From Schmidtea polychroa (lineage: Eukaryota): a stretch of DNA of 64,000 nucleotides. The notes under the pieces are model-generated. The model was given only the letters and a program-made list of their open reading frames with translations, was not told the DNA's origin and did not search any database. Location: contig CM097885.1 in the NCBI GenBank assembly GCA_044892525.1, positions 11,286,001 to 11,350,000 on the forward strand, written 5' to 3'. Positions within the stretch are counted from its first letter, which is position 1. Every line of letters starts with the position of its first letter. Positions 6,008-60,508 of the stretch are shown in pieces. A program made the translations under genes and the position numbers.

Positions 6008-6445
6008 ATGTTAGCAAATATAAATTATCGAGGAAATTTTGATGTATCGAATATGAGGTTCCCACCAGGGAAACCCCAACAAATTATCGATAGAAGAGGG
6101 AAATATTCGATAATATTTTTCAAGACTGGTAAATGCAAAATCATGGGATGTAAGAAACCTTTGGATATTAATAAATTACAATATCGAATAAATAATATTA
6201 TAATCCAATCAATTACCGTTACTATGGATATGGGACATAGTATCAATCTTTATAACATGTCGAAAAAATGTGATTGTATGTTTGAACCGGAATTGTTTCC
6301 GGCACTAAGACTATTAAAATATAACCCTATATGTGTCAACGTGTTTGCTAGTGGAAAGGTTGTCATGTTGGGGTTGAGAAATTTGGAGTATAGAGAATTT
6401 GTTGACAATGTTCGAAATGAGATAATTTCATTGGTCGATTTCTAA
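6008..6445 (+). CDS. TATA-binding protein-like protein (Polinton-encoded)
   Basis: IIFFKTGKCKIMGCK, IQSITVT, FEPELFPAL and VNVFASGKVVMLG match the two TBP core repeats. Confidence 0.85.
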   Translation: MLANINYRGNFDVSNMRFPPGKPQQIIDRRGKYSIIFFKTGKCKIMGCKKPLDINKLQYRINNIIIQSITVTMDMGHSINLYNMSKKCDCMFEPELFPALRLLKYNPICVNVFASGKVVMLGLRNLEYREFVDNVRNEIISLVDF

Positions 6446-6519: not shown

Positions 6520-6936
6520 ATGTACAAAATACCAAGCGCAGCAAATTTAATGAAAGATATTGACGACTACGGTAAATTTAAAATTTTTATTTTCACATTT
6601 TTTATATTTATTATTTTAGAAAAATATTTAGAAGTAATGCTCAATAGGATAAAATATTATTATCCTCAAATTGCAGAAATAATCAAGGATAGAGAACCAG
6701 AAATCATTCCGGATCTCATATTCTATTCCACTCAAATTAGAATCATGGAGGTATTCCATCAATTTTTATGGGATATCAAGATTAATAGAACCATGAAACA
6801 AATGGAGCTGGAGTATCAATGTATGTTCGGATGTTCATGCTGTGCCGATCGATATCGGCGATATGTCGAATGGGAGTTAGTGAAAACTCTGAGAAGGTTT
6901 CACTACTCCCGGATTGTTGATTTAGGTTATCAATAA
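6520..6936 (+). CDS. Polinton accessory protein with CxxGCxCC motif (one short intron)
   Basis: Homologous to 39026-39437, with a GT..AG intron at the same position. Confidence 0.65.
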   Translation: MYKIPSAANLMKDIDDYGKFKIFIFTFFIFIILEKYLEVMLNRIKYYYPQIAEIIKDREPEIIPDLIFYSTQIRIMEVFHQFLWDIKINRTMKQMELEYQCMFGCSCCADRYRRYVEWELVKTLRRFHYSRIVDLGYQ

Positions 6937-26111: not shown

Positions 26112-26650
26112 AGTAGGGTATTGTGTGGACCCGGGAACAAAGACATATGACGTCATCGATGACGTCACAAAGACATATTACGTCATACCCCCCACCCCCC
26201 GGGGGGAGGGGGTATTTTTTTTTTTTTTTAATTTTTTTAAAAAAAAAATTTTTTTTTTAAATTTATATTACGTTGCGGTATTTTAAAATATATATTACGT
26301 TGCGGTATTTTAAAATTTATTATATTTTAATTATTAAATATATTACGTTGCGGTATTTTAAAAACTTATTGATAAAAGTTTAATAAAATAAAATTATTAT
26401 TACACACACACAATATAGTCTACCCGACAAAATATTCTGTTCCCCTATGGTCATACACACACACAATGTATAAAAATATTATTAGTGTCCACACACGCAA
26501 CAAGTTAGTGTTCTCATTGATATATTATTAATCTATATACTCCGAGTCTATCCGACAAAATATTCTGTCCCCCTATGGGTACTGCTCACAAGGGTACTGG
26601 TTACACTCAACAAGTCGCAAGGGTATTAATAAACAATGTAATAAAACATA

Positions 26651-26745
<95 letters not shown>
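26112..26745 (+). repeat. Left terminal inverted repeat of copy 2
   Basis: Reverse complement of 40693-41288. Contains a CRE palindrome, a C/G tract and three ATTACGTTGCGGTATTTTAAAA units (two in the right TIR). Confidence 0.95.
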
Positions 26746-26746
<1 letters not shown>

Positions 26747-26958: not shown

Positions 26959-27487
26959 ATGTCGCAACCAAATTTTATGGAAAATGTTCTAAACGGAATT
27001 GTCACCGCGAATATAGTCGACAGCCTCAATTTCCTGATCAATCGAACCGAACAAATCATTGAAGGTGAACATATCGATTATCAGCAGATGATGGAGACGG
27101 AATCCCTGGAAACCAAGAAGTATTACTTCAATAGAATATTTCAGTGTCTTTTCGATGAAGACATGAAATGGACAAGGATAATTGTAGGATTCACCTACAT
27201 GAAGATAATCATTGCAAAAGGTCAACATGATTCAGAACATTATTATCATTGGTCTTTAGAAGTAAGATTTCTTTTATAATCTATATTTTAATAATATTCA
27301 TTTCTAGATAATCAAGTCCAAGTTTACCCCATGGATAGAAGCCAATGGCGGATGGGGTGTATTAAATAAACTGGCCTGCAATTTTAAAGAAACTGATGAA
27401 ATCAAAAGAAAAATGAAAAACTATATAAAACTTACAACTGGAGTTGTTATAATGTATATTTTCTGTAGATATATGAATAAAAATTAA
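26959..27487 (+). CDS. Bcl-2-family protein, 160 aa, spliced (26959-27261 and 27308-27487)
   Basis: BH1-like MKWTRIIVGFTY, BH2 PWIEANGGWG and a C-terminal hydrophobic anchor. A 46-nt GT-AG intron gives an intact frame. Confidence 0.88.
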
Positions 27488-27687
27488 TGTTTTTAATAGT
27501 ATATTTAAATGAAAATAATTCAATTTTAAAATTTATTAACACACTGGGTAAAGGTCATAAAGGTAACTAACAAAACTTTAACATATTATTATTATTATTA
27601 CAATGTATAAAAATTGTTCACAAAGTTACTGTTAAAAATAATCAAGACAATAAAATCAATACATTTATTAAATAATTTAAACACACA

Positions 27688-30600: not shown

Positions 30601-31490
30601 CCTATTTATACAGTCATATTTAATAATTGACAAGAAACTATACAAAAAGCAGAAGTGGTCATTATTAACTACATTAATGAGACAGCTTAAGTTTCTTAAA
30701 GATTTTGGGGTTTCAATAAAACTTCTACCACTTAATCGACTTATTTCAGCAAATTTAGTAAGAACAAAGCTTATGTATTCTATTTTATTGATAGTCCAAT
30801 TACTACCTTTCTCATTAATTCTAATTATTTTTTCATTTAAACGAGCAATACCTTCGTCAATGAATGTATCGCTCCAAACTCGGGCGGAATTCGAGATTAC
30901 AAAAGATTGTAACTCATCATCTTTTATAAATTCCACCTTTAGACAAAATTGAATTTTACATGATTTTAATTTATTTACATATAAATTTAATTTATTTATT
31001 AAAATTTCTGGTACAGAGACCGTTTTTAAATCTAAAGACGAAACGTCCATTTTTAATATAATATGATTATTATTTAAATCACTGGTGACATCTACGACAC
31101 CATAACCTATTTGATTAGTATTATTAATACGATTATTATAATAAATATTACTACTACTATTATTATTATTATTATTATTATCAATTTCCTCATCACTTAT
31201 GTTGATTATTTCATCATCATCACTTATTGTGATTACATCAATAACTTTAGATTTTTTACTTGGTATTGAATTTATTTTTTCATTATTTTTTCTTTTATTC
31301 ATATTAATTAGATTATTTATTTGTTCATTTAATTTATTTACTTGATCTTTTAGATTATTTATTTCGTTTATATCATTATTATTATTATTGGTGCTGTTAG
31401 TATTATTGTTGGTGATATTATTATTATTATTATTGTTGATATTATTATTATTATTATTGTTGTTGATATTATTATTATTGTTGTTGTTGA

Positions 31491-31536
<46 letters not shown>

Positions 31537-32321
31537 GTTAACAAACGATTCATATAAGCTATAGAAAAGAGACTTCTTAGAAGGTTTAAATTGTTGGAGA
31601 TGGAGTCTATGCTTATTATAAAATTCCTTATACGTTATAACTTCAATAACCTCACATTTAGGGCATAGGATGTAGGTGACACCGTTATATTTATGACTAT
31701 AATATCTTTCCATTATATCATCGCAGTCATTATGATATTGACTATTACAAAAGTTTTGGTATTTCAAACCTATGAAAATATTTTTATCATAAAATGTTTA
31801 AAAAATATTAAGATAATAATCATTTTTAAAGTTTAAGATATTTTTCGTAAGATATTATTCAAAATTATCTTTTAAATAGTATCTTATAAAAAATATTATT
31901 CAAAATTATCTTTTAAATAGTATCTTATAAAAAATATTATAAAATATATATAATTTAATTCGTTTTCATAAATAATTTAATTCATTTTCATAAATAATAT
32001 ATAAAAGTTATTAATTATAATGTTCAAAATCATCATAAATAAATAGGTAAATCTTCTTTTCATGAATAAATCTTCTTTTCAAAATCATCATAAATAAATA
32101 AGTAAATCTTCTTTTCATAAATTATCATAAATAAATAGGTAAATCTTCTTTTCATGAATAAATCTTCTTTTCAAAATCAACATAAATAAATAAGTAAATC
32201 TTCTTTTCATGAATAAATCTTCTTTTCATAAATCTTCCTTTCAAAATCATCATAAATAAATCTTCTTTTAAAATATCTTCTTTTCATGAAAAAATCTTCT
32301 TTTCATAAGTTTCTTCTTTTA

Positions 32322-32363
<42 letters not shown>

Positions 32364-32690
32364 ATATTTTAAAAAACTTAAAAACTTATAACAATAAATA
32401 AATACTTACATTTTCGTCCTTTCGAAAGAAATTTTCCAGCATCAGCAGCAGCAGAAGTATTTATTACATTTCCATCTAAAAGCATAATAAAAATAATAAT
32501 GATAATAAGAGTAAACTATTACCATTTATTCTATTCATGTCTACAGCTTGTCCGTCGATATTCATTTTAATTTGTTGATTAGTACCTAATAATCATATTA
32601 AAAATAATAAAATAATAAAATAATAAATTTACCATTAATTCCTCCAACGATCTTTCCGTCAACTCTTTGAATATTGTTGTTGTTGTTCAT
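27688..32690 (-). CDS. Protein-primed DNA polymerase B (exons 32690-32633, 32585-32523, 32475-32410, 31769-27688)
   Basis: Exonuclease YADFEA and FHNLKGYDLH; polymerase YIDINNLYG, KLLNNSLYGK and GDTDSF. Three phase-1 introns connect an upstream ATG in frame. Confidence 0.93.
31850..32320. repeat. Tandem AAATCTTCTTTTCA-type repeats in pPolB intron 3
   Basis: Many degenerate copies between 31850 and 32320. Confidence 0.8.
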
Positions 32691-33032
32691 GTTGCTAATA
32701 GATTTTTAAAAGTGATGAAAAAATGAAAGTGTAGACTATATAAGAGAGATATTACAGGTTTTATTAACCGACCAATGAAAATAGAGATAGGATAGGAAAA
32801 GACCCTACATGTTTGTTTATACAAACCATGACGAAATAATGACCTTTACATGTCTTTATTACTCAGTGCTTTGTTACTTTGCACTGTGCATGCACTGAAC
32901 ATGTAATAGTATTACATAATATTTTTAAACATAAAATTTTAAACATAAAATAATAAAATAATAAAATAATAAAACAAATAATAATATTTAACAAATAATT
33001 AAAATAGTCAACAAATAAAAATCATACATTTA

Positions 33033-33444
33033 TTAACCATCAAATTTTTTATACAACAACCATGCCAAACAGTGTTGACCACATGTTTGAGTCAATGGAT
33101 TTTGAAACATAGTTTTATTATATACAATAGGTTTCCCAATTGTTTGAAGTTTTGATATCAACAAAGCAGGATAATAGAAACCCATAGGATCGAATACGAA
33201 TATATTACCAGGTTTCACATATATAGCTATCCAATGTTCTCCACCAAGATGAGACGAATGAGTATTGATGATTATGGCTTGATTATTGCTCAAATAAGGA
33301 ATTTTATCAAGAGGAAAAACTCCTACAAATTCATTTCCTAATATTTGTTTTCCAATTCGATTAACCTGAACAGAACTACTTTAATAAAATTAAACAGTAT
33401 CAAAAAACTTACTCCATGACAACTTTTTGTGTTTCTGTATACAT
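33033..33444 (-). CDS. Adenain-like maturation protease, spliced (33444-33413 and 33378-33033)
   Basis: His, Asp, Gln and Cys catalytic motifs. The 34-nt intron is required for an open frame. Confidence 0.9.
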
Positions 33445-34668
33445 TTATACTAGCACGGTTCTATTTGCAGTAATTTGAACTTCATTTTCAAATACTCCAT
33501 ATATTATAACATGTACCGGTTCAGTAATAGCTTTTGCAAACTTAATATCCAGTCGTAAATTCCCGTTTTGTGGTAGTTGACTCTGATTTAAATCAAAATC
33601 AGGGGCTAAAACAAATGTAAAAAATGGATATTTGCTTTTAAATTCTTCTAGAGTTATTCCACAATTCAAGTTTTTATCTAAGTAACCCAGATTTCTAACA
33701 ATACTCTGCATATATGTCGCACAGTAATTATCGCTTTCGAAATCTTGAGTATATGTTTCTCTATAATCAGTATTTTTCGACAAAGTCAAAGAAGTAACAC
33801 CAAAATTTTTGAAAATTGAGCTGGAAGCAGTATAAGATCCATTATATTGCGTTTCATTTTGAAATGTTACCAGAATAAAATTAGGCATTCTTCTGTCACC
33901 AAATATTTGTTCTTTATAGAATGATGAAGCACCTTTAGCAATAGCAAATTGTACAATTTCCTTTGTTTTTAAAGGATAAATTGCATGTTTTGAATTAAGA
34001 CCCAATTGATGACCAGCTAATACTGACGGGTCTACTCGAACTCTTCTCACCAATAATTTTGCATCAACTAATTGGCATATTGGTGCACCAGTTGCACTAG
34101 TAAGAGATAATGCAGAATCAGACCTTTTCAATCTAATGTGTACATTAACTCCTGGTAGCAAATATTTCGGTTGATCCATAAAATCGAGTTGTAATGATGA
34201 GCACATAGTGAATGATTTTGAGCCTTTAACCCACTTTTTTCTTTCATCATCTGTTGCTGCATAACCCATAGGTGTAAGACAGGTATTTTTAGTATCAGAA
34301 TTGTAATTTAAAATAGTTTCTATCAAAGCCTTGTGAATGAATGTATTATTTCCGCCCTCAATCTTAATATTATTAAATCCCAAGACTGCATCTTTAAACA
34401 GAGTATGAAACATGAAATTGTTCGGTATTACATCTGCATTGGCATCCAAAACTTTTCTATCTTTATCTACAACCTTGATCTGAACAGTCAATAAAGTATC
34501 ATTCAAATCTAAATATTCAGTTTGCGAACCATTAATATAAAACTCGATATCATTTCTACTATCAGTAATTGAATTCATAGGAAAAACTTCCTCAAAGGCC
34601 CCAAATTCGATTACAGCTTGAGGCGATGGTCTATCAAATATACATAATTCAGATTTACCACAAATCAT
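33445..34668 (-). CDS. Major capsid protein (double jelly-roll, PY)
   Basis: KSEL.IF..P..Q..IE......P.......IEF.I.G....YLDL.DT.L.V is the Polinton MCP N-terminus. Intact 407 aa. Confidence 0.92.
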   Translation of the reverse strand: MICGKSELCIFDRPSPQAVIEFGAFEEVFPMNSITDSRNDIEFYINGSQTEYLDLNDTLLTVQIKVVDKDRKVLDANADVIPNNFMFHTLFKDAVLGFNNIKIEGGNNTFIHKALIETILNYNSDTKNTCLTPMGYAATDDERKKWVKGSKSFTMCSSLQLDFMDQPKYLLPGVNVHIRLKRSDSALSLTSATGAPICQLVDAKLLVRRVRVDPSVLAGHQLGLNSKHAIYPLKTKEIVQFAIAKGASSFYKEQIFGDRRMPNFILVTFQNETQYNGSYTASSSIFKNFGVTSLTLSKNTDYRETYTQDFESDNYCATYMQSIVRNLGYLDKNLNCGITLEEFKSKYPFFTFVLAPDFDLNQSQLPQNGNLRLDIKFAKAITEPVHVIIYGVFENEVQITANRTVLV

Positions 34669-35027
34669 TTTGCAAATATAGTTCCATGTCCTTTCATTCG
34701 TTTGTTTATACGCGATATTCCATGTCCTTTACGTTTTGGAGCTGGGGCTGGGGGCGTATCTTTTTGAAACATACCAGCAACTCCAGGTAGAACCTTCCCT
34801 AACTCAGCTAAAGCATTTGTTTTTATGGATGGTAATATTTTCTGTTCATTCATAATAACATCTTTTGCAGTTTTCATGCCAAAACTACCAATACGTTTAA
34901 GAATAGGAAGTGCAAATCTCCCTATTGTTTTTAACCAACCTGATCCGTACTGTTTACCAATAAAATATGGTAATTCACCGCCAGATTGGCTATCACTATA
35001 CATACTAATAATATCGGAATTAGCCAT
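34665..35027 (-). CDS. Putative core / membrane-active protein
   Basis: QSGG, QYGSG and MKGHG motifs plus an amphipathic helix. Confidence 0.72.
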   Translation of the reverse strand: MANSDIISMYSDSQSGGELPYFIGKQYGSGWLKTIGRFALPILKRIGSFGMKTAKDVIMNEQKILPSIKTNALAELGKVLPGVAGMFQKDTPPAPAPKRKGHGISRINKRMKGHGTIFAK

Positions 35028-36087
35028 CTACTTTACGAAAATGTAGTGTCAAATGAGTTTTTGAGTCTTTTGGAAAGTTTATAAGTTTTCCACTATCGTC
35101 ACGAATATTTATTTCTATATTGTTTATACATGAACTTGCTATTGGTAAATACATGGGATTATCTATATTTATATTGACAACTTCATCATGTTCATATTTT
35201 CCAATCCATACCGATTTCAAAAGAGGAACACTGGAATCACCAACAATTATAGGCTCAATAATATTAGTATATATGAACATTTGTTGATGATGTTCAAGTA
35301 TTCTTGGTTTACGTATACCAGCCGATTTTTCCCGATATTGCTGCTTCTCTAATCCAAGTGTATTTGTCAAATTTTTATCAAATGTAACTTCGCAAATATC
35401 ATCATTCAAACTGAAGGTAAACATCAAATCTTTCACAATGTCCAAACTTTTAAATATGTGTGAACAATTGTACTTTAAATATTTAAGTAACACATCAAGT
35501 TTATCAATATATAATTCGTCAGCAAAGGTGAATGATTCTTCAACTTCATTATTATACGACACTGATATTTTGATTTCTTCTCTCATTACACTGTTTGCTT
35601 CAAATAGATTAAAGCGTAATAAATATTCTGTTTCCATAACTTCATTTTTCAACTTATTGCAACCCAATCGTTTGGCATCTTCAATATATTCGAATGTTAT
35701 TGTAAATGGTTTAAAATCACAACTGATATTTAATCCATCCTTGTAAAACATAGAGCAGTGCTGATCTAATAGTTGATTTGGAATATGATATGTTTTATCA
35801 TAATTACTGATAATAAAGATACCGCTACATGTTTTCATAGCATTCCTTTTGAAATCAATCTTACATTGACTATAAAATGGGAATGTATTGTACACGAATG
35901 TAAAATCTTGCAGTGCAACTTCCCAGTCCCCATTTAAAGAAATCGGATTCTGGAGATTGACCATGAATTTACTGGCTTGATTATCTGGATGAATAAGCGG
36001 GCAACTATTGCTTGGTAAAATAGTATAAAAATTCACTTTACTAGATCCTTTTCTGATATCCATGATGGGTTTTGATAACCATGCCAT
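35020..36087 (-). CDS. Minor capsid protein (penton, PX)
   Basis: FYTILPSNS and GDWEVAL motifs; intact ORF. Confidence 0.88.
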   Translation of the reverse strand: MAWLSKPIMDIRKGSSKVNFYTILPSNSCPLIHPDNQASKFMVNLQNPISLNGDWEVALQDFTFVYNTFPFYSQCKIDFKRNAMKTCSGIFIISNYDKTYHIPNQLLDQHCSMFYKDGLNISCDFKPFTITFEYIEDAKRLGCNKLKNEVMETEYLLRFNLFEANSVMREEIKISVSYNNEVEESFTFADELYIDKLDVLLKYLKYNCSHIFKSLDIVKDLMFTFSLNDDICEVTFDKNLTNTLGLEKQQYREKSAGIRKPRILEHHQQMFIYTNIIEPIIVGDSSVPLLKSVWIGKYEHDEVVNINIDNPMYLPIASSCINNIEINIRDDSGKLINFPKDSKTHLTLHFRKVDG

Positions 36088-36662
36088 TTGACATAGAATT
36101 GTTTATCCTTGCCGACCTTTTTAGTTTTCAATATCTTTTGAATTCTAAATACTTTTGGGGGAGGAATAACTTGTAATTCTTGCTCATAAAACTTTCCTTG
36201 TACAATATTGTTATCATAATCACTGATGACATACATTACAGGATTCTGACTAGTATTTATTTTTGAAATTACAAAGACTTCATCACTCCAATTTGTATCG
36301 AAATTTTTAATAAATGGTGATGCACTAATTTTACTAATTCTAACATGGTCACCGACTTTATATTTAGGTTTTGCAATTTTTACAGATTTCTTAGAATAGA
36401 TTGTTTTTGATGTAATATCAACCGGTCTCAATCCATTAAGTCCTCGATGTGATGAATGATTATAACTTGTTATTATTTTCGGTAAAGCATTTACCCATTT
36501 TTTATTACCTTGATGCACGAACAATTTCTTTAATCTATCTCTCAATGTTCGATTAAATCTTTCAACATGGGCAGCTTTGTATTGAGAATGTACCGAGTAG
36601 TGATTTATTTTCAGTTTATCGAGGATTTGCTTGACTTTACTGTTGTAGAATTCTTTACCTAA

Positions 36663-36739
<77 letters not shown>

Positions 36740-37127
36740 CTAAATCTGTTTGCAAGTTATTAGGATGTCCATCTTTAAATAAATCATTAACAGCTTTAGA
36801 CATTTCATCTGCAGATTTTGCCTTGACGGGTATTGCTCGGGCAAACCGACTGAATACATCAATACATGTTAAAATATATTTATACCCATTGTTAATTTTC
36901 GAATAAGGTATCATCTCCATCAAATCCATTTGCCATAAATCATTTATTCCATATGTTTTATATACTCTTGTTGGGAATCGTTTCTGCATTGGTTTGTTCA
37001 AACTGTACGCAAGCTGGTCTGATAACAACTTCTGGGTTTCCTTTTTCGAATTCGGAACTCTTTTGTTTAATTTTGCCACTCCACCGAAACCGGCTTCGTC
37101 TTCTGGGTTCGTCCAAATCTTCTCCAT
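36033..37127 (-). CDS. Retroviral-like integrase with chromodomain (intron 36659-36739)
   Basis: DDE residues in LWQMDL, QTDLG|KEF and VERFNRTL. C-terminal FYVKWHGY..SWI chromodomain. Confidence 0.93.
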
Positions 37128-37185
37128 TACAACAAGAAGATTTAATATTAAATTTAATGTCTGGTAATGAAGGATTAGCACCCAT
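36958..37185 (-). CDS. Small MGxxxS ORF overlapping the integrase
   Basis: 75 aa, conserved across both subfamilies. Confidence 0.5.
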   Translation of the reverse strand: MGANPSLPDIKFNIKSSCCNGEDLDEPRRRSRFRWSGKIKQKSSEFEKGNPEVVIRPACVQFEQTNAETIPNKSI

Positions 37186-37188
37186 TGT

Positions 37189-37683
37189 TTATGATCGACT
37201 TCCTATTATTCCACCTAATAATGATATTGCTAAAGGTATCAATGCACCGATAAATCCCCCTTGTTGTTTATATATAATTTTTCTCATTTGTTGACGATTT
37301 TTATTATTTACTAATGATAGCAAAGGTTTCCTATGTTTACTCAATAATTGCTTTTTAGATTTACTGATTTTAATCTTACCTTTGACTACTTTAAGTATAA
37401 TATCGAGTAAATCATCGACAACATAATTTGGAAAAGATTGCAAAATACTGTTTCTTTTCATACTGGGTGCTTTTAACAATGTATTGAAAAACGGGAAACT
37501 CCGATGATTTTTAACAACTTTTACTTTCTTAGTGGTTTTACTTTTAGTTTTAGGTTTAGGATTTTTCGAAATGAGATTCATTGCAGGAAAATTTTCTGTA
37601 ATAAGTTCTTTAGATGGAGTATAACTAGTTGTTGGTGGAACTTTTGGTTGTTTTTTACTCGATATCCTTGTTTTTGAAAACAT
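37189..37683 (-). CDS. Basic virion core protein with QQGG|F site
   Basis: Homologous to 4735-5259. Confidence 0.72.
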   Translation of the reverse strand: MFSKTRISSKKQPKVPPTTSYTPSKELITENFPAMNLISKNPKPKTKSKTTKKVKVVKNHRSFPFFNTLLKAPSMKRNSILQSFPNYVVDDLLDIILKVVKGKIKISKSKKQLLSKHRKPLLSLVNNKNRQQMRKIIYKQQGGFIGALIPLAISLLGGIIGSRS

Positions 37684-37696
37684 GATTTATGTGTTT

Positions 37697-38335
37697 TCAA
37701 ATTTGTTTTAAACTTTGTTTATATACCATGGCGCCTTTTGGGTTGAAAATATCTGTTTTTACCCGTATATCATCAGGACATTGTTGTGTGAAATCGAGAA
37801 ATATATACCCATGAGGTATTTTCGTAGCATCTTGAAATGCACTGATAAGAAAATTACGGTTATTAGGGTATGCTTGTCGTCCAAGAAAATCGATGACAGT
37901 TGCATCTCTAGGATTCTTGAAAATAACTAGATATTGTACATTTAAATTACGTGTTCGATGTGCACCACCTTGATGAAATAGATTTTGTGTTATGAAAATA
38001 ACTGTTACACCAACATGTCTGCTGATTTTTGTGAATAAATTATTAAAATCCTTTTCTTTATTGGCTTCTTGATACAAATCATCGATAATGATGACATCAT
38101 CTTTTTTCAAACGACTTGACCAGTTTTTATCAAAACCCTTTACTATTTTCATGTTTTTCAATTGACAGAAACTTGATTGAGTCAATCCATGTTCTTCATC
38201 GGCGCCCCTATGCCAATAAATATTGTTGAATTTTGTTTTGAACAAATTAGATTTTAGTAATTTACAAACAAATAATGTTTTTCCACTACCACTCGGACCA
38301 ACGATTTGGTATACTGCATCATTTCGTAATTCCAT
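37697..38335 (-). CDS. Packaging ATPase
   Basis: Walker A and B motifs; intact 212 aa. Confidence 0.93.
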   Translation of the reverse strand: MELRNDAVYQIVGPSGSGKTLFVCKLLKSNLFKTKFNNIYWHRGADEEHGLTQSSFCQLKNMKIVKGFDKNWSSRLKKDDVIIIDDLYQEANKEKDFNNLFTKISRHVGVTVIFITQNLFHQGGAHRTRNLNVQYLVIFKNPRDATVIDFLGRQAYPNNRNFLISAFQDATKIPHGYIFLDFTQQCPDDIRVKTDIFNPKGAMVYKQSLKQI

Positions 38336-38439
38336 TTTTTAAATTTAAACTATATAATTATTGTTTATATTGATAATTTAAATGAACTCCTTTTTAAAAT
38401 AACTATATATAACAGAGTTTTTATAATTATTTCATTAAA

Positions 38440-38904
38440 ATGCTTTCAAATATAAATTACAGGGCAAAAGCTGATGTATCGAAAATGGTATTTCCAATGG
38501 GGAAACCACAACAACTTATCAATAGAAGTAAAAAATATCCAATAATATATTTCAAAACTGGTAAATGTAGAATTATGGGGTGTAAGGAAATAATCAAAGC
38601 TAGTGAATATAATGTTTATGATTTAGAAATACAATCGATAACCGTAACTTCCGATATAGATTTTTCTTGTAATTTAAATAATTTCGCTAAATTAATACCA
38701 TGCTTTTACGAACCAGAATTATTTCCAGCTTTGAGATATATAAAATATAACCCTATGTGTGTAAATATATTCGCTAGCGGTAAGATAGTAATTCTTGGAA
38801 TAAAAAATATTGATTACAAATGTATAGTTGATAATATCATATCTGAAATTAAATCAATAATTGAAGGAAAAGAATTTTTAGATTTTTTATTATCACTTAA
38901 TTAA
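38440..38904 (+). CDS. TATA-binding protein-like protein
   Basis: IIYFKTGKCRIMGCK, IQSITVTSD, YEPELFPAL and VNIFASGKIVILGIK. Confidence 0.86.
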   Translation: MLSNINYRAKADVSKMVFPMGKPQQLINRSKKYPIIYFKTGKCRIMGCKEIIKASEYNVYDLEIQSITVTSDIDFSCNLNNFAKLIPCFYEPELFPALRYIKYNPMCVNIFASGKIVILGIKNIDYKCIVDNIISEIKSIIEGKEFLDFLLSLN

Positions 38905-39025
38905 TTATTTATCATTTCAAATTCAATGCAATTAAAATGCATGATTCTGATTGGTCAAAATCTAATTGGCTGATGATTATTTATAACAAAATGTTTTCGG
39001 TTTAGTTATCATTTATTCAACAAAA

Positions 39026-39437
39026 ATGTACAACATACAAAGTTCCGCAATCACCTCAATGAAAGAGCATGCAAATTATGGTAATTTCAAATTTTTATTG
39101 TTACATTAATATATATATATTTTTTACAGATGAATATCAATCAATTATCCTGCAAAGATTATGCTTCTATTATCCAGAATTAAATGAAATTCTACAAGAT
39201 AGAGATCCATCTATCATTCCGGATTTGGTATACAACCAAACTCGAATCTGGATATTCGATATAATAAACACCTTTCTATGGGATATCAAGATAGGAAGGG
39301 GGATGAAAGAAATGAAAGCAGAGGCTCCTTGCATTTTCGGATGTAGCTGTTGCAATTTCCGTTATCAACAATATATTGAATGGTGTTTGGTGAAGACTCT
39401 GAGAAATCATCACTCGAGTCAGATTGTATCAAAATAA
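39026..39437 (+). CDS. Accessory protein with CxxGCxCC motif (intron 39081-39129)
   Basis: The spliced frame is open and the intron position is shared by all three copies. Confidence 0.68.
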
Positions 39438-39594
39438 ATTTTTTTTTTTTTTTTTTTTTTATGTTGAATTGTTTTGTTTTTGTAAATCGAAATAATAGAA
39501 ATAGAAATAATAATAATAGAAATAATATAAGTAATAATAGAAATATTAGAAATAATAATAATAAAAAACAATATTTATAATAAAAACATTAATG

Positions 39595-39700
39595 CAACAT
39601 TAATGCAAATGACATGCAATTTAAACAAAGACATGTAATTTAAACAAAGACATACATCAATCTGATTGGTTGATAAACAATAGTCATAGGTATAAAAACC
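39595..39700 (+). promoter_or_regulatory. Promoter module: octamer ATGCAAAT, AACAAAG, CCAAT box, TATAAAA
   Basis: Motifs lie upstream of the ATG at 39732. The octamer block recurs at 40213 and in copies 1 and 3. Confidence 0.6.
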
Positions 39701-39731
39701 CTGTACCATTTCATTTTAATCATTATTTACG

Positions 39732-40151
39732 ATGACAAAGAAAATTTCAAGCACTGAAAAGCCAAAAGTTGTTCCAGAACTTGTACAACCTGTTCAAATG
39801 TTCCACAACTATAAAATGTATTTTTTAAAAGAAGAAATCAATATAAAATTGGTGTCACCGATCAAGCTAATTCCAACTAAATTTCAATTCTTATCCGGCA
39901 CGCTTTCAATGTTAGATGTTAAATCTATTGATGAGGTTTTCAAACGGTTGAATACGAATCTATCTTGTAATCAACATGCCTGGTTCAACAACAGATATGC
40001 AAGATTTTATGATTCATTTGATGAAATCGGTTTCAAAGAAAACGAAAATTGGTATATAACAATTGCAATCCAAGGATATAAAGTTGATAATAATGATGTG
40101 TATTCTCCAATTTGGAAAATTATGTCTGCTAGACTTTCACAACTATTTTAA
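39732..40151 (+). CDS. Accessory protein, possible OB-fold ssDNA-binding protein
   Basis: Conserved 136-139 aa ORF with an aromatic, beta-rich C-terminus (WYITIAIQGYKV..YSPIWKI). Confidence 0.6.
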   Translation: MTKKISSTEKPKVVPELVQPVQMFHNYKMYFLKEEINIKLVSPIKLIPTKFQFLSGTLSMLDVKSIDEVFKRLNTNLSCNQHAWFNNRYARFYDSFDEIGFKENENWYITIAIQGYKVDNNDVYSPIWKIMSARLSQLF

Positions 40152-40284
40152 TGTTATATTTAATAAATGTATTAGTCATATTTGTTTTTTCTCTTTATTA
40201 ATTGCAACATTAATGCAAATGACATGCAAATTTAACAAAGAAAATCTATAAACAAACTTATAATATAGTTTTAAAGTGTTATTA

Positions 40285-40619
40285 ATGACTACAGAAAAAG
40301 GTTAACATGATTAATTAAATACCGAATTATTTATTATTTAGAATTATTAATCAACTTTTTGTTGGAAAAGTTAGCAGAAATAGCTGGTGTAAAAATTGAG
40401 GATATATTATCTATTACAAATGCCTTAAATATCGGCTGGGTAGCTGAGAGTCAAGATTCAGGATTTGACAATCATGAAGAAACTCAAGAAATTGATGACG
40501 AAATCTATGAACCTATAGAGGAACCTAAAGATAATATTACGAATGATTGTATTGATCATGTCGTTGAAAATATAATGAAATGTGGAGATGACGATTGCGA
40601 ATGTGTTAATAAATTTTAA
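40285..40619 (+). CDS. Small acidic accessory protein (intron 40301-40341)
   Basis: Spliced MTTEKE|LLINFLL frame; DSGF motif, acidic tract and CGDDDCEC tail. Confidence 0.65.
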
Positions 40620-40691
40620 AATTGAATTATTTTCATTTAAATATACTATTAAAAACAATAACATTAATTTTTATTCATATATCTACAGAAA

Positions 40692-40692
<1 letters not shown>

Positions 40693-40755
<63 letters not shown>

Positions 40756-41288
40756 TATGTTTTATTACATTGTTTATTAATACCCTTGCGAGTTGTTGAG
40801 CGTGACCAGTACCCTTGTGAGCAGTACCCATAGGGGGACAGAATATTTTGTCGGATAGACTCGGAGTATATAGATTAATAATATATCAATGAGAACACTA
40901 ACTTGTTGCGTGTGTGGACACTAATAATATTTTTATACATTGTGTGTGTATGACCATAGGGGAACAGAATATTTTGTCGGGTAGACTATATTGTGTGTGT
41001 GTAATAATAAATTTATTTTATTAAACTTTTATCAATAAGTTTTTAAAATACCGCAACGTAATATATATTTTAAAATACCGCAACGTAATATAAATTAAAA
41101 AAAAAATTTTTTTTTAAAAAAATTTAAAAAAAAAAAAAATTTTAAAAAAAAATTTTAAAAAAAAATTTAAAAAAAAAAAAAAAAAACCCCCCCTCCCCCC
41201 GGGGGTGGGGGGTATGACGTAATATGTCTTTGTGACGTCATCGATGACGTCATATGTCTTTGTTCCCGGGTCCACACAATACCCTACT
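40693..41288 (-). repeat. Right terminal inverted repeat of copy 2
   Basis: Reverse complement of 26112-26745. Confidence 0.95.
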
Positions 41289-41550
41289 ATTGTTGTTTTC
41301 CTTTTTTCCCTGATTTCAAAATTCTTTTTTCTTTTTTGTACTAATTAATTAGTACTGATCTTCATTTTTATTTTCCTGTTTGATAACTTTTATTTCCTTT
41401 CTCTTTCTCATTTTTGATTTCTTTTCACTTCCGTTTTCTTTTCTGAGTCCCTATAGATCGTCCCGTTTGTCATGGCGATCTTCCCCAGGTAATTTTATTT
41501 ATTTCTTTATGAATTATTATTTAGGTATCCTCAACATATCTCCCCCTTTA
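41289..41550 (-). repeat. Start of a 3' LTR (TG at 41536) with its polypurine tract
   Basis: The minus strand reads TTCGAGGACGAAAT..AAAGGGGGAGA-TA-TGTTGAGG, a typical Gypsy PPT/LTR junction. Confidence 0.7.
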
Positions 41551-44493: not shown

Positions 44494-44859
44494 TCATCTT
44501 TTGTCGAGTAACTTTGTAATTTTTATCTTTTCATCTTCTCTTTGATAAGTGGCTAAGATTTTTGAGCTTCCATTCTTCTCCGTTGATGATAATTGTATTT
44601 CCCACGAATTTTCCGTAGTTACCGTTTGGGTTTCCATATCTTTGAGTCTTCGTTTTGCCATTCTCTTTATACGAAGCTCAATTTTCCCCGCCATTTTTAA
44701 TTCCTCTTCCATTGTTATCGTTACTTTATATCTCTTGATGGTTTTCATTGATTCGATGGAATGAAGATTTATTTCCATCTCTTGGATTTCCACAGCTTTT
44801 TCCTTTTGTGGTTTTTCCGGGATTTTGAGTTTACTATATTCCCTTTTTTGATTCATCAT
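44494..44859 (-). CDS. Unknown 121-aa ORF at the 3' end of the retroelement
   Basis: Its start overlaps the exonuclease stop (TAATG); same K/E-rich composition. Confidence 0.45.
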   Translation of the reverse strand: MMNQKREYSKLKIPEKPQKEKAVEIQEMEINLHSIESMKTIKRYKVTITMEEELKMAGKIELRIKRMAKRRLKDMETQTVTTENSWEIQLSSTEKNGSSKILATYQREDEKIKITKLLDKR

Positions 44860-46016
44860 TAGTTGGCGAGTTCTAACTCTTGTAGGGAGTGAGATATCCG
44901 CGTTGGCACTTTTATATCATCTTCCCAATCGCTTTCCAATGCCAAATAAACTCGTCTCACTGCATCCGTATCTTCTCTTGCCGAGTGCGTTCCCTTTTGC
45001 ATTGATATTTGGCATATTTCTTGAGCAATTATCGACAATTTGTACCATTGCCCATTCTTTGTGATTTTCCTTTTCGTTAGAGCTTGGACTGCTGCTAGAT
45101 CCCGAATTCCCCATAAATCATTTGGGTTAACTCCACTATACCTTAATTCATTTTGTAGATCATGTACTACCAATATTTTTCGTGCTGTTAGTTCCTGAAT
45201 TTTCCTTTGGCTCTCATATTGGTCTTCTTGGTTCCTAGACATTTTTTCAGTAATGCCGTGAACCTGTGTAACATAGTTTTTTATTTTTTCTCTCGGAGTT
45301 ATCAAAGCATTATAGATTATTTTCCCGGTATATTCGATGAGGCATACCGCTAGTGGGATCATTCTATTGTCCTCACTTACTCCATATTCGGCATCCATGA
45401 ATATTATATTTTTTCGGATTTCTTCAGTGGTTAAATATTTTCTCAGGAATGACTTTCGGTGTTTCAACATTTCCTCAGTAATTGGGAGCAAGGTATTTTC
45501 TTCTTCTATTGAGATGATTCTTTCTACCGCGTTACTTGTGGGCATTTTACTGCGGCATTCTAATACTAACCACGCGGTTCCATTCGTTGCTCGCATACGT
45601 TTATGCCATGTTTCTTTATCAATTTTCCATGATGAATTGTTTGGCATTGTTCAGGTTATGGTTCCTTCATTGTTTATGATTTCCACTATTCCTTTAAATA
45701 CACGGATCTCCCAATTTTCATCATTTTTCCTCACTAATAATTCGGCTATTTTCATTCTTGATCTCCATTCGATCTCCATTAGACATATCCTCATTTTCTC
45801 ATTGCCTGTTCTTGCCCAATTTGGGATTCTCAGATTTTCTTCGATTACATATGTCTTCTCTATTCGGCTTCTCTTTTCTCTAAGATACTGTGAATATAAT
45901 TTCGCTGGTCTGCTGATTTTCTCCATTTGATATTCTTTGTTTTTCTTCGTTTTCTTCTTTAAAAATTTTGTCAAATCGCTGAAAACAACCATACTCTTAT
46001 ATCCCAACTCTCCCAT
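44859..46016 (-). pseudogene. DEDDh 3'-5' exonuclease (REX4/ISG20-like) with N-terminal extension; one in-frame stop
   Basis: IFMDAEYG, VTQVHGIT, ILVVHDLQNE, IRDLA and HSAREDT motifs. ORF 45651-46016 is in the same frame. Confidence 0.82.
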
Positions 46017-46184
46017 CAGTAGTACAATCGTTTAACCAATCAAATTACAGGAATGATAATTTAATTTTAGATCACGAATAATCACAATACAAGATCACTA
46101 TTAGTCATTTTTATGTAATTATAAAAGGTATGAAAGAAAGAAATACTCTACGATATTAATAGCATGCAACGAAATCATATCTTA

Positions 46185-47360
46185 CTACACCCATGTCTCT
46201 AACTGCTGCGGCTCAGAATATTGATAGTCGCAGATAGAATTGTCATTGTCATTACTTCTCAAGATTAGAACAATGTAGATGAGTAGGATACCACTTGGTA
46301 TTGCCACAATGATACATATGAATAGCAATTCGACACAATTGTTATGAGATGATTTTTCTTTACAGTTTAGTGAAAAGCTTTCGTTTTTTGACCATGAGGG
46401 TTTTACGGTTAATGTTAGATTATGATCACTTATTATTTCTCCAATGGGTTGAGTATGAGGAAGATGAATATGTCTATTTTCAATGAAAGTGACTTTCCAT
46501 TGATCTGAGTTCGCTTTGCGCTTGCAATATTGAATTTTGATCATGAAATTTCTTGGTTTCGGATTAGATACTGAGTTCAAGGTACTCAACTTTGCTCTTT
46601 GTTGGTATTCGTCTAACACCACCTGAATTTTATTATTTACAAAAATATTTACCCTTTGTCTGAGGCCTGGTTGGCGTAACACAATTATTTCATTGTTCTC
46701 AATTTTTATTTGAACTCGATTAGTTTCGTTAACCAAGTGTACTGCTTCATATTGACTCTATCCATTGATTATTCATATACGTCCCATTGTCATGAATGAG
46801 TTTCTCGTAATAATGTATTGAAAGACTGTAAGTGAGATTTTCTTGTAAATTTTTGTATTTAACAAAAGATTTTCTTTTATTTAATGTTTCAATCGTAATG
46901 TTTTGAAAAACAATTCTGACTTTCTGTTGCTCTTCCGCTTTCCAATATACGTGAATTTCATTTATCATCGGTTCAATTTCAGCTAAATTTCTCCATTCAT
47001 TTGTCCAAATGTTAATTTGTATAAGGTTATAAATATTTTGAGTAGTATTTGTTTGATGCGTATATTGTTTAATGGTCCAAGGATATTTGTAATTTGCTGT
47101 CAATCGACGAGCTACATATATGCTTTTCTCATAATTCAACGTAACAGATGGTTCGAAAGGGTTCAATAAATTACTAACTTCTATTTGTTCTGATATTTCA
47201 CAATGATATGTCCACACAATACTAGTAAATGTTGTATATATATATAAATTTTATCCAATAAGGGTACTTTTTCTACTGAATATGGTAGATTCATTGTTAT
47301 TCCACTTGCATTTGCTATGACATTTATTATGACTGTAGTTATAAATAAAACTCTGTTCAT
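46185..47360 (-). pseudogene. Type I membrane protein with FN3-like ectodomain, downstream of integrase
   Basis: Signal-like VLFITTVIINVIANA, EIHVYW..YKNLQENLTYSLSI, TM LLFICIIVAIPSGILLIYIVLIL, and tail ETWV. Confidence 0.55.
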
Positions 47361-47439
47361 ATATCCCAATGGCGTAGGGTTTTTTTGAAATTTTTGTTGA
47401 ATAATTTTTTCATCATTAAGTTTTTTTTGTTTTGATCGT

Positions 47440-48895
47440 AATTGATACTCTATTTCGGATACTTTCTTACATCGATTGGCATGAACTATAATTGTTTCTG
47501 CTCTTTTGTTATTCATTGGACGTAACTTCAAATTAGTTGCTGTAACATCACATACTGTATATGGACCTTTGAATGGTCTTTGTAATTTTATTGATAGGCC
47601 CCTTACTGGCTCCGGCCTGTTTAAATATACTGAATCTCCGATTTTATTCCGTGCTCATGCGCCTTTTTGTCATAGTTTTCTTTATATTTTTCTTGACGAT
47701 ACTTAATTTTTAACCCCGCACGAGTCCATGCAGATTATAATCGTTCTTGTATTATTACTTTATAATTTGGAACGTCCATGTATTGAGACGTTGGGGGTTG
47801 AAATTTCAGGTCAATTGTCATATTGTTTCGTCTCAAATACATTAAATAAAAAGGTGTTTCACCTGTACTCTCGTTAACTGCATTTCGATAGGCAAACAGA
47901 CATGGATTGATAAATAAGTCCCAATCTTTTTGTTTCCGATTTACATACGATGAGATCATATTGATTAAAGTACCATTAAATCTTTCTACTAGCCCGTCTG
48001 TTTGCGGGTGATATGGTGATGTATTTAATTTATAAATACCAAATAATTCGGTAATGGATTTAAATAAATCACTTTGAAAATTTGTTCCTTGATCTATTAA
48101 CAATTTCTTTGGAGCACCATATCTGAATATAATCTTTTCGACAAATATTTGAGCAACTTCTTCCGCTTGTTGATTTGGTATTGCGTACGCCTCTGGCTAT
48201 TTTGTTAAATAATCACAAAATACAATAATATATTTATTTCCATTTGTAGTTTCGGGTAAGGGCCCGATAATATCCATTGCTGAAAATTCTATTGGCACAT
48301 CTGGTATTGGCATTGGTTTTAGTGGGACTTTTATTTTCTTTCCTGTATTCTTTCGAGTTAGACAAATTTTGCACGTATTACACTAATGCTTTACATCTTG
48401 GTCCATTGTATTCCAAAAATACTTTAGTTTTAATCGTGACATTGTTTTTCTTGCTGATAAATGTCCACCCAATGCTCCATCATGATATTGTAACAATAAC
48501 GTATTTCGATGCTTAGTTGGAACAACTATTAATAATTCATCACCTTTAATACACTTTAATATACCTTTGTGAATTACATATTTATGCTTTTCCTCAATTA
48601 ATTGTTTCAATTCACTGTCCTTTTTCATTATCACTGTATGTTTGATTATTTGTTTTAGTTCATCATCCATTTTCTGATCTCGTTGCAGCTCTGACATATT
48701 GTTTGCTGCTTTGATTACTGATAATACTGTATCTCTCAAACTTATTTCTTCCTGGTCAACACTAATTTCCTCATTTGAGATCCTTGACAATGCATCTGCG
48801 TTAGCGTTTGATTTTCCTGTTCGGTATTTTATTTCAAAATCATATTCTTGTAAGGCTATAGACCACCTTATCAATTTGCTTGCTGCATCTCGATG
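47440..48895 (-). pseudogene. Gypsy RNase H end, linker and integrase (HHCC, DDE, GPY/F)
   Basis: RWSIALQEYDFEIKYRTGKSNANADALSR, HDGALGGH..CKIC, MDIIGPLP, DQGTNF, YHPQTDGLVER and FKGPY. Confidence 0.93.
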
Positions 48896-50242: not shown

Positions 50243-50269
50243 TTTCGTTTTTGGTCTTAATGCTATTTC

Positions 50270-58292: not shown

Positions 58293-58730
58293 TTAGAAAT
58301 CGACCAATGAAATTATCTCATTTCGAACATTGTCAACAAATTCTCTATACTCCAAATTTCTCAACTCCAGCATGACAACCTTTCCACTAGCAAACACGTT
58401 GACACATATAGGGTTATATTTTAATAGTCTTAGTGCCGGAAACAATTCCGGTTCAAACATACAATCACATTTTTTCGACATGTTATATAGATTGATACTA
58501 TGTCCCATATCCATAGTAACGGTAATTGATTGGATTATAATATTATTTATTCGATATTGTAATTTATTAATATCCAAAGGTTTCTTACATCCCATGATTC
58601 TACATTTGCCTGTCTTGAAAAATATTATCGGATATTTCCCGCTTCTATCGATAATTTGCTGGGGTTTCCCTGGTGGGAACCTCATATTCGATACATCAAA
58701 ATTTCCTCAATAATTTATATTTGCTAACAT
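58293..58730 (-). pseudogene. TBP-like gene with an early CGA-to-TGA stop
   Basis: Near-identical to 6008-6445. Confidence 0.85.

Positions 58731-60446: not shown

Positions 60447-60508
<62 letters not shown>

Follow-up and report, generated by a model that had tools for sequence, protein, structure and literature searches.

A reduced TATA-binding protein gene in Polintons of Schmidtea polychroa and a promoter motif shared by the virion-block genes of its clade

Introduction

Few virus-like elements are as widespread in animals as Polintons, or Mavericks, and to our knowledge the control of their genes is essentially unknown. Here we describe a gene for a homologue of the TATA-binding protein (TBP) which is carried by Polintons of Schmidtea polychroa. 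Three copies of it, A, B and C, lie in a stretch of 64,000 nucleotides (GenBank assembly GCA_044892525.1, contig CM097885.1, positions 11,286,001 to 11,350,000, forward strand), which we call the window and in which position 1 is the first letter. A first-pass annotation made from the letters alone had read copy B as a Polinton-encoded TBP homologue and had suggested that it acts either as a late transcription factor or as a TFIIB decoy. We analysed the gene, its product, the element that carries it, its relatives in other elements and the promoters of its neighbours.

Results

The mini-TBP gene and its predicted fold

The product of copy B matches the Pfam TBP family PF00352 in two stretches (score 53.6 bits, cut-off 22.9, E 2e-14), the better of which covers residues 62-125, and both TBP repeats are thus present, as the first-pass annotation had claimed. 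When PDB sequences were searched with phmmer, TBPs made up 35 of the 36 matches at E <= 10, the best being those of M. jannaschii (2z8u_A, 2.6e-14) and Encephalitozoon. An open reading frame (ORF) of 145-154 amino acids (aa) had been counted in all three copies; this holds for copies A and B, which are open, but not for copy C, where a TGA interrupts the frame at codon 8 and a 130-aa ORF with an internal Met start still matches the family (E 4.5e-14, 52.5 bits). Copies A and B are 57% identical and an alignment of 25 family members has 18 invariant columns, which bears out that the motifs persist between diverged subfamilies.

An AlphaFold2 (AF2) model of copy B, built with the 25 family members as its alignment, reached a predicted local distance difference test score (pLDDT) of 92.1 and a predicted template-modelling score (pTM) of 0.80. 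Foldseek returned 44 matches from the PDB at E <= 1e-3, every one of them a TBP entry. With VIA-align the top 38 rows were all TBPs (Z 9.9-11.8, root-mean-square deviation 2.6-3.7 Å, 139-146 residues aligned), the best being 1ais_A (Z 11.8, 140 residues), and the first row after them fell to Z 6.2. Residues 1 to about 145 of the model map onto whole TBP cores, for example onto residues 66-240 of 1ytb. The Pfam profile and the structure prediction, which had been recommended as checks, thus found the TBP family and the TBP fold, respectively.

In the model two tandem repeats form one saddle-shaped beta sheet, in which every strand of both lobes is present (residues 2-10, 25-28, 35-38 and 42-48, and 60-72, 88-90, 97-100, 107-111 and 115-121). 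It shares this two-lobed, ten-strand saddle with canonical TBPs (1YTB, 1AIS and 2Z8U; Z 11.3-11.8, about 140 residues aligned), but the family is shorter, 145-170 aa against a core of about 180 aa. Whereas each repeat of a TBP bears two helices on its convex face, and the C-terminal repeat does so here (79-83 and 127-153), the N-terminal repeat of the model lacks H1 and retains of H2 a four-residue remnant (54-57); a profile-profile comparison with 20 canonical TBPs by hhalign (E 6.4e-21, probability 99.35) likewise leaves a 16-residue gap where this H2 belongs. The N-terminal repeat is therefore shortened, as had been noted from the letters. The same alignment puts F38, F95 and F111 on canonical Phe positions and sets an invariant P23, part of an invariant Pro-x-Gln, on the first Phe of the N-terminal repeat. 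Three of the four Phe of TBP, which presumably intercalate as in the TBP-TATA crystal structures, are kept, among them the second of the N-terminal repeat (F38), and the absence of the first, which the annotation had suspected, is real.

The C-terminal repeat, given in the annotation as YEPELFPAL..IFASGKIV, does keep both of its Phe (F95 and F111) and the stirrup. The latter, E91-P92-E93-(L94)-F95, aligns to YEPELFPGL of canonical TBP and agrees with it residue for residue; E91, P92, E93, F95 and L98 are invariant among the 25 members and L94 is nearly so. We take it that E-P-E-L of this stirrup contacts TFIIB, as in TBP-TFIIB-DNA structures. Conserved in the family are, besides F38, F95 and F111, the S1 strands NINY and QSxT. 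At positions which presumably face the DNA, as in the yeast TBP-TATA structure, the family is fixed for residues unlike those of canonical TBP: V, V and T of the N-terminal repeat are replaced by N6, R44 and M46, and N, V and T of the C-terminal repeat by S66, T68 and L119 (placed by hhalign and VIA mapping, S66 and T68 being also visible in the pairwise alignment). The copy B ORF is a real gene for a TBP-family protein of reduced size, which we call mini-TBP, and as modelled this protein is a full beta-sheet saddle with a canonical C-terminal repeat and an N-terminal lobe stripped of helices.

The carrier element

Copy B lies in a complete insertion of 15.2 kb (26112-41288) with a 6-bp target-site duplication (TSD), ATTGTT. 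The inverted repeat arms (26111-26714 and 40691-41289) agree at 561 positions and form terminal inverted repeats (TIRs) of about 600 nt, and the ends of the element read AGTAGGG...CCCTACT. Long TIRs, a 6-bp TSD and 5'-AG...CT-3' ends, the features by which Kapitonov and Jurka reportedly described Polintons in 2006, are all found here. On the minus strand the genes follow one another in the order PolB, protease remnant, orf407, orf120, orf355, integrase, orf164 and ATPase, and on the plus strand the TBP gene, orf122 and orf139 run toward the right end (Table 1). The integrase matches Pfam rve just under the cut-off (E 1.9e-7, 31.7 bits against 32.6) and Chromo, also under its cut-off, at E 6e-4. 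An intact homologue of the protease in copy A (807-1259) matches Peptidase_C5 (E 2.2e-6, 27.9 bits, cut-off 21.3). PolB, which is recognised by its motifs, gave no match in Pfam or among PDB sequences, orf407 none in Pfam, PHROG or PDB sequences, and orf355 none to a sequence family. The gene thus lies within an element that has TIRs, a 6-bp TSD and PolB motifs and that encodes an adenain-type protease, an A32-type ATPase and an rve-type integrase, and its identity as a Polinton-borne TBP homologue is supported.

The inner 254 nt of the copy B TIRs are 99% alike, which indicates a young copy. In the protease (33033-33460, minus strand) a disruption of the frame has removed the start region, and the otherwise complete copy is in this respect not fully intact. 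In the integrase ORFs at 36033-37127 (minus) and 60059-60700 (plus) a long (ATT)n-type microsatellite places a run of 25-30 Ile midway in the catalytic core; other ORFs of the window likewise have runs of this kind, of Ile, Asn or Leu.

Table 1. Positions of the mini-TBP genes, of the components of the copy B element and of the promoter motifs discussed in the text
Feature	Position	Strand	Basis or remark
mini-TBP gene, copy B	38440..38904	+	intact ORF, 154 aa; Pfam TBP, AF2, VIA-align
mini-TBP gene, copy A	6008..6445	+	intact, 145 aa, other subfamily; Pfam TBP E 3.5e-15, 56.0 bits
mini-TBP gene, copy C	58293..58730	-	in-frame TGA; Pfam TBP on 130-aa remainder
Left TIR of copy B	26112..26714		TSD ATTGTT at 26106-26111 precedes
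Right TIR of copy B	40691..41288		TSD ATTGTT at 41289-41294 follows
Putative protein-primed family-B DNA polymerase (PolB), main exon, 1341 aa	27688..31713	-	motifs LYGWA, NSLYGK, GDTDS in translation
Adenain-type protease remnant	33033..33380	-	open frame without start
orf407, major-capsid-protein-like (MCP-like) by size and position alone	33445..34668	-	homologues 25-59% identical beside protease in relatives
orf120, small virion-block protein	34665..35027	-	ORF; homologues in relatives
orf355, penton-like by position alone	35020..36087	-	ORF; syntenic homologues in relatives
Putative rve-type integrase, chromo-like C-terminus, (ATT)n-encoded poly-Ile run	36033..37127	-	Pfam rve, Chromo
orf164, small basic virion-block protein	37189..37683	-	ORF; same-position homologues in relatives
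A32/FtsK-type packaging ATPase	37697..38335	-	Pfam Pox_A32 E 2.1e-7, 31.1 bits (cut-off 22.8)
orf122, Cys-rich	39027..39437	+	short intron probable near 39081-39129, GT...AG boundaries; copy A homologue 6520..6936
orf139, candidate OB-fold single-stranded-DNA-binding protein	39732..40151	+	AF2 pLDDT 89.5
TATATATAA, canonical-type TATA box 28-36 nt before mini-TBP ATG	38404..38412	+	read from sequence
TATAAACA motif, noncoding, 33 nt before ATPase ATG	38362..38369	-	sequence
ATAAACA 39 nt before orf164 ATG	37716..37722	-	within ATPase 3' end (codons Y-K-Q)
ATAAACA 65 nt before integrase ATG	37186..37192	-	
ATAAACA 19 nt before orf355 ATG	36100..36106	-	within integrase 3' end (codons D-K-Q)
ATAAACA 100 nt before orf120 ATG	35121..35127	-	within orf355 (codons I-N-N)
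ATAAACA 41 nt before orf407 ATG	34703..34709	-	within orf120 3' end (codons I-N-K)

Distribution, synteny and selection

A word-indexed search gave 111 candidates, of which 99 were homologues; nearly all of these are 140-180 aa long, and PF00352 is present in every one. An exhaustive phmmer search of 1.84 billion cluster representatives found 960 matches at E <= 1e-3, 95 at <= 1e-10 and three at <= 1e-30; the top of this list is held by single-stretch matches over residues 1 to about 140, and the two-stretch canonical TBPs of about 180 aa rank lower. Metagenome contigs yielded 113 candidate stretches, 86 of which were confirmed, and the ORFs of the 80 loci kept were compared by BLASTP with the proteins of the window element. 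This survey of other Polintons, which the first-pass annotation had called for, found a TBP ORF in 77 of the 80 loci and, in 37 of these, at least one hallmark gene as well (ATPase, integrase, MCP-like, penton-like, protease or PolB); among the loci of at least 3 kb, 27 of 38 had a hallmark gene besides the TBP ORF. With the TBP profile IMG/VR yielded one locus only, which is non-Polinton by its neighbours. Across the relatives the identity to the window falls from 75% to 35% for the ATPase and from 54% to 27% for PolB-like ORFs (compared with PolB of copy B), and because these identities fall so low we regard the mini-TBP gene as old in this Polinton lineage. The TBP gene had been described as divergent from the virion block, which is true of this window but not of most relatives: in metagenome loci with both a TBP and an ATPase gene, TBP is co-directional with the ATPase and upstream of it in 21 of 24, divergent in one and otherwise arranged in two.

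In the genome of the window itself (781 Mb, 1012 contigs) the TBP profile gave 2998 first-look candidates, of which 150 were scored, every one of them above the cut-off. Stronger, host-type matches at six places account for ten of the scored rows, and the rest scored about 50-56 bits; those sampled from the latter (L092-L111) were of Polinton type, and four subfamilies are recognisable in the genome. By the method of Nei and Gojobori the ratio of nonsynonymous to synonymous divergence (dN/dS) between subfamilies is 0.17-0.34 (six pairs, with dS of 1.1-2.3, which is saturated), and neutral evolution, which the annotation had named as fatal to its proposal, is rejected. Within subfamilies the ratio ranges from 0.09 to 1.51 (12 pairs with only 4-12 changes each), which is what one expects of copies inserted recently. 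Six pairs with or among metagenome genes gave 0.16 and 0.26, the other four being incomputable at a proportion of synonymous differences (pS) >= 0.75. Mini-TBP is thus a conserved gene of a large Polinton clade and no oddity of these copies.

Relationship to cellular TBPs

An unrooted tree of 86 hand-chosen rows was obtained by a quick IQ-TREE search under LG+C20. The rows comprise four from this genome, 26 ORFs of loci with Polinton neighbours, four from other contexts and three host paralogues, together with 12 of 120 listed eukaryotic TBPs and, from 150 listed representatives, 17 two-stretch and 20 one-stretch sequences. Forty-six of the 50 rows classed as mini or Polinton lie on one side of a branch with a Shimodaira-Hasegawa-like approximate likelihood ratio test (SH-aLRT) value of 99, and the rows of the four subfamilies found in this genome are united in a single clade (98). 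The same is true of the 12 eukaryotic TBPs (98), whose clade groups with the host paralogues (95). The comparison with host TBP and TBP-related factors (TRF) that had been proposed thus sets the mini-TBP family apart from the host paralogues as a clade of its own. Four rows of Polinton context stand on the canonical side, three of them (L079, L078 and L081) with one representative and the fourth (L075) near a host TRF-like paralogue. Full-length TBP genes with both repeats complete in Pfam were found in two of these Polinton-type contigs, at L079:2165-2731 (188 aa) and L075:3043-3585 (180 aa); the elements are of the same type as that of the window, with integrase, MCP-like, protease, ATPase and PolB neighbours, but differ from it in having two complete repeats. 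The two genes may be either separate captures or the unreduced ancestral state, and the tree, which being unrooted names no donor, would fit capture of TBP by Polintons more than once as well as a single reduction of a full-length ancestor.

Promoter motifs

The upstream regions analysed were the 150 nt before every BLASTP-assignable gene of the window and the 80 loci, after removal of those >= 80% identical. In an unbiased k-mer count ATAAACA ranked first in the last 80 nt before the ATPase, orf164, orf355 and MCP-like genes, and within these 80 nt it stands in 41 of 55 non-redundant virion-gene upstreams against 0 of 61 mini-TBP upstreams. Of 42 aligned cases 27 have T and 11 have C on its 5' side, hence YATAAACA, and 29 have A on its 3' side. 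Counts for the single genes are given in Table 2. The exact 7-mer is missing from three ATPase upstreams, of which two show ATAAACG and the third belongs to L079, the sole locus with an ATPase or MCP-like upstream that has a full-length TBP, where the motif is missing at both genes; the remaining MCP-like miss is the N-truncated ORF of copy A.

Table 2. Upstream regions with sense ATAAACA within 120 nt (background 0.058 per 150 nt per strand)
Gene	With motif	Position of motif start
ATPase	18/21	31-52 nt before ATG, mode 35
MCP-like	10/12	
orf164	8/10	
orf355	9/12	
orf120	7/7	mostly about 98 nt; six of seven at 97-106 nt before ATG
integrase	10/19	
mini-TBP	1/61	
protease	0/6	
PolB	0/5	
orf122	0/3	
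orf139	4/19	

Between 32.8 and 38.4 kb copy B has eight ATAAACA, every one of them on the coding strand and not one on the opposite strand. The sites lie in noncoding DNA, before the ATPase and the integrase, or within the upstream genes in two codon phases (I-N-K and I-N-N in one, Y-K-Q and D-K-Q in the other), and this indicates a constraint on the DNA and not on the peptide. Two subfamilies sampled at other places of the genome also have the motif in this position, about 30 nt from the start of the ATPase; one of them is the most abundant and has an otherwise different intergenic sequence. We rejected ATAAACA as a poly(A) signal, as no gene lies upstream on that strand at the ATPase of the window and as the motif before the MCP-like gene comes ahead of the orf120 stop codon. 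The 104-bp intergenic sequence between the ATPase and TBP genes (38336-38439) showed no secondary structure beyond chance (z 0.05).

The mini-TBP gene of copy B is preceded by the TATA box TATATATAA (Table 1), and 17 of the 61 non-redundant mini-TBP upstreams have TATAWAAR at a distance of 34-60 nt from the ATG, the background rate being 0.055 per 150 nt. CCAAT alone is not enriched before the mini-TBP gene (14/61 against a background of 0.36 per 150 nt). As shown by these counts, two promoter classes exist, YATAAACA on the virion-block genes and a more ordinary TATA on the mini-TBP gene.

Neighbouring genes and other contents of the window

The putative intron of orf122 reads GTAATTT...TTTTTACAG, and the protein has a Cys-rich stretch, CxFGCSCC. 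Counterparts of orf139 lie at 7253-7744 and 57062-57472 of the window, and a homologue is present in 20 of the 77 loci with a TBP ORF; several relatives have an apparent intron (AG|GTAA ... TTTTAG) ahead of it. Pfam, PHROG, PDB sequences and Atlas gave no match to orf139, and its best VIA-align matches, of middling score (Z 5.2-7.2), were single-stranded-DNA-binding proteins (SSBs) of the T7 gp2.5 type, CP312R of African swine fever virus (ASFV) and baculovirus LEF-3. If orf139 is indeed an SSB, as its model suggests, the right arm with TBP, orf122 and orf139 would be an early-type module.

Sequencing contigs of four runs extend over the gene; their label 'RNA' is a guess, and they are uninformative on expression and on transcript starts. 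In runs X1 and X2 a joint from 38916 to 39637 skips 720 nt (38917-39636) with ends that are not GT..AG, and it most likely reflects copies without orf122. In run X4 a stretch of non-templated A follows 40178, beyond the stop of orf139, a stretch of T stands ahead of 37061 and a loose end at 38337 resembles an adapter; these are at most hints of polyadenylated transcripts.

Several TBP paralogues of the host (L082-L091, on G000 C1 and C2) were seen: L082/L089 is a canonical gene split by an intron, L083 and L084 are canonical-like and lie 38 kb from each other, and three are divergent, intronless genes of 166-215 aa (L085, L087 and L088). The core of the canonical host TFIIB is split by an intron, and L112 is Brf1-like as we read its sequence, Pfam showing TFIIB repeats only. 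An intronless TFIIB-like gene of about 301-304 aa, with a Zn ribbon and a TFIIB repeat, is present in at least 12 genome copies (for example L120:1180-2085 and L122:2275-3180, both on the minus strand) and forms arrays at G000 C3 38.2-39.1 Mb and C1 23.8-24.2 Mb, where neighbours are in places about 8 kb apart; because a 10-kb sample held no other ORF >= 120 aa, we consider that it is not on a Polinton. Elsewhere in the window, 44859-53762 (minus) reads as a retroelement-like block with ORFs of 439 aa with the reverse-transcriptase motif YIDD (48896-50215), 652 aa with a transmembrane-looking tail (50831-52789) and 262 aa, exonuclease-like. Between Polinton copies A and B a one-strand series of ORFs of 120-190 aa (12485-21891, plus) resembles the exons of a large host gene.

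Discussion

It seems to us somewhat more probable than not that mini-TBP is an element-encoded promoter-recognition factor for late-type YATAAACA promoters, to which by analogy it is predicted to bind. We argue that mini-TBP would be made first, its gene being served by the transcription machinery of the host, in many cases at a promoter with an ordinary TATA box. It would then bind the YATAAACA boxes ahead of the ATPase, orf164, integrase, penton-like, orf120 and MCP-like genes, favouring YATAAACA (TATAAACA in the window) over TATAAAAG, and at the box it would nucleate a host RNA polymerase II (Pol II) pre-initiation complex through TFIIB. Having no RNA polymerase gene in its 15.2 kb, the Polinton must use that of the host. 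The outcome would be a self-encoded switch for the late-type genes of the element. The two promoter classes would on this proposal be early and late in time, and the function of late transcription factor, one of the two suggested by the first-pass annotation, gains indirect support from the motif specific to the virion-block genes; the other, that of TFIIB decoy, gains none.

We infer that mini-TBP reads YATAAACA and binds TFIIB. In canonical complexes the N-terminal repeat sits on the 3' half of the TATA box, and in mini-TBP a divergent N-lobe coincides with a divergent box half (AACA against AAAG), which fits this reading of YATAAACA. The helices of the N-terminal repeat are the surfaces for TAF1, NC2, Mot1 and TFIIA; as they are lost in the N-lobe, the factor could act outside the control of TFIID. 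It is possible, and we put it forward only tentatively, that a large clade of Polintons in animal genomes has in this way a two-step transcription programme with a minimal TBP, which has shed the helices for host regulators, has re-tooled its N-lobe face (N6, R44, M46 and P23) for the 3' half of a private YATA-AACA box and has kept the TFIIB stirrup.

Several observations weigh against such a dedicated factor. Just 17 of the 61 mini-TBP upstreams have TATAWAAR, and the composite of CCAAT plus TATA is modestly enriched (7/61 against 0.021 per random 150-nt stretch); where the mini-TBP gene follows closely behind orf139 or the protease, it may be co-transcribed. The classes are not clean, as orf139 upstreams mix both motifs (4/19 with ATAAACA, that of the window included), and the 0/5 of PolB is uninformative if the first PolB exons lie further upstream. 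Over the whole window ATAAACA is not enriched (43 matches, 36 expected). The link between motif and mini-TBP is one of co-occurrence alone with a single outgroup element, L079, and a search of IMG/VR with the ATPase profile for further outgroups returned no relatives. Lastly, ATAAACA is also what we take to be the core site of forkhead factors, and a host factor or another protein of the element could read it.

This last point leads to the alternative that fares best, namely that mini-TBP replaces host TBP at all promoters of the element or raises their output, and that YATAAACA is read by a host forkhead factor, by orf122 or by another element protein. With three of four intercalating Phe and a canonical TFIIB stirrup ordinary TATA binding is plausible, TATAAAC is near to a TATA box, the motif presumably is a forkhead core site and the orf139 upstreams are mixed; yet N6, R44, M46 and P23 are invariantly non-canonical, which a generic TBP does not need, and the ATPase motif keeps a fixed, TATA-like distance (31-52 nt, mode 35) unlike scattered enhancer sites, so that we hold such a general supply of TBP to be rather unlikely. 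Less likely again is a decoy or dominant negative that titrates host TFIIB (or Brf1) or blocks host TATA boxes, and so damps host transcription or evades the regulators of TBP. The retained TFIIB-contact stirrup would serve it, and a protein without the N-repeat helices, to which TAF1, NC2, Mot1 and TFIIA bind, would make an unregulated competitor, but a pure TFIIB sponge needs no selected DNA-binding saddle, whereas F38, F95, F111, NINY and QSxT are conserved, and the dedicated motif on the virion genes of the element itself would be left unexplained.

We consider it quite improbable that mini-TBP is an architectural protein whose TBP fold, instead of serving transcription, bends AT-rich DNA when the element is integrated, packaged or replicated by protein priming at its termini. 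The gene does adjoin the candidate SSB orf139 and the packaging ATPase, and TBP-like folds are known in proteins outside transcription (rolling-circle Rep proteins reached Z 5.6-6.0 in VIA-align), but the invariant EPELFPALR stirrup has no known role beyond TFIIB/Brf binding and each TIR arm of copy B has one ATAAACA (26629, plus; 40771, minus), no more than the AT-rich background. Decay of a captured host gene that is of no function for the element, which one broken copy in the window and within-subfamily dN/dS of up to 0.7-1.5 on few changes might suggest, is already refuted by the between-subfamily dN/dS of 0.17-0.34, the 18 invariant columns in 25 members, the synteny kept across elements with ATPases just 35% identical and the separation of the clade from host TBP paralogues. 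In our ranking the DNA bender, the decoy and the general supply each fit less of the evidence than a promoter-recognition factor for YATAAACA.

Virus-encoded proteins of the TBP fold are also found in nucleocytoplasmic large DNA viruses (NCLDV) and as B263R in ASFV. The best BFVD matches of the mini-TBP model were of this kind, from Heterosigma akashiwo virus, Terrestrivirus, Aureococcus virus and, as a B263R homologue, an abalone asfa-like virus (E 3.7e-7 to 8e-5). These homologues are larger than mini-TBP (186-547 aa), and viruses of the NCLDV/ASFV type bring their own RNA polymerase, unlike the Polinton. The closest working analogue appears to be the TBP-like factor of beta- and gammaherpesviruses (BcRF1 of Epstein-Barr virus (EBV), ORF24 of the herpesvirus associated with Kaposi's sarcoma (KSHV), UL87 of human cytomegalovirus (HCMV)) with its TATT late promoters, as set out in the available parts of PMC4893493, PMC7498053 and PMC12529657. 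The proposed likeness is that of a host-Pol II-dependent virus with its own TATA-type factor and a variant box at the TATA position of its late genes. The analogy would be functional, and mini-TBP is not taken for a member of that family: BFVD matches of its model to herpes proteins are weak (U58 E 1.4e-3, BcRF1 E 1.2e-2, query-normalised TM-score (TMq) 0.37-0.46), the herpes proteins have several hundred to about 1000 aa and mini-TBP, unlike them, has clear sequence homology to cellular TBP and the TFIIB stirrup. The herpes factors, according to the same parts of those papers, work within a viral complex of six proteins and make direct contact with Pol II.

For a MELD virus whose PolB is adintovirus-like, Starrett et al. 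2021 (PMC8502044) label a 'TBP' gene, without analysis, in the legend of their Fig. 5. In the part of that paper available to us, section 3.4 with its figure covers non-animal datasets, and its text does not mention the reduced form, the clade, selection or the promoter motif. The first-pass statement that TBP is not a standard Polinton gene therefore needs softening, the gene being clade-wide here and its label already in print. A literature search, provisional as subscription journals lay mostly outside it, found no paper that analyses a Polinton TBP or the YATAAACA motif; this legend label is thus the only precedent found, and provisionally the reduced form, the clade-wide conservation and the YATAAACA boxes are new here.

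Mini-TBP and YATAAACA should be useful markers for this Polinton clade in genomes and metagenomes, and one small protein and one 8-nt motif suffice for a direct assay. As a natural minimal TBP, mini-TBP indicates that the N-lobe helices are dispensable and that the saddle and the TFIIB stirrup are indispensable. If the two-step programme is true, no other natural TBP with two lobes would be as small as mini-TBP, which would be convergent with the late-gene system of herpesviruses, and a self-encoded factor with a matching box on every virion-block gene would give these Polintons a virus-type early-to-late switch, by which the virion genes would be turned on independently of TFIID.

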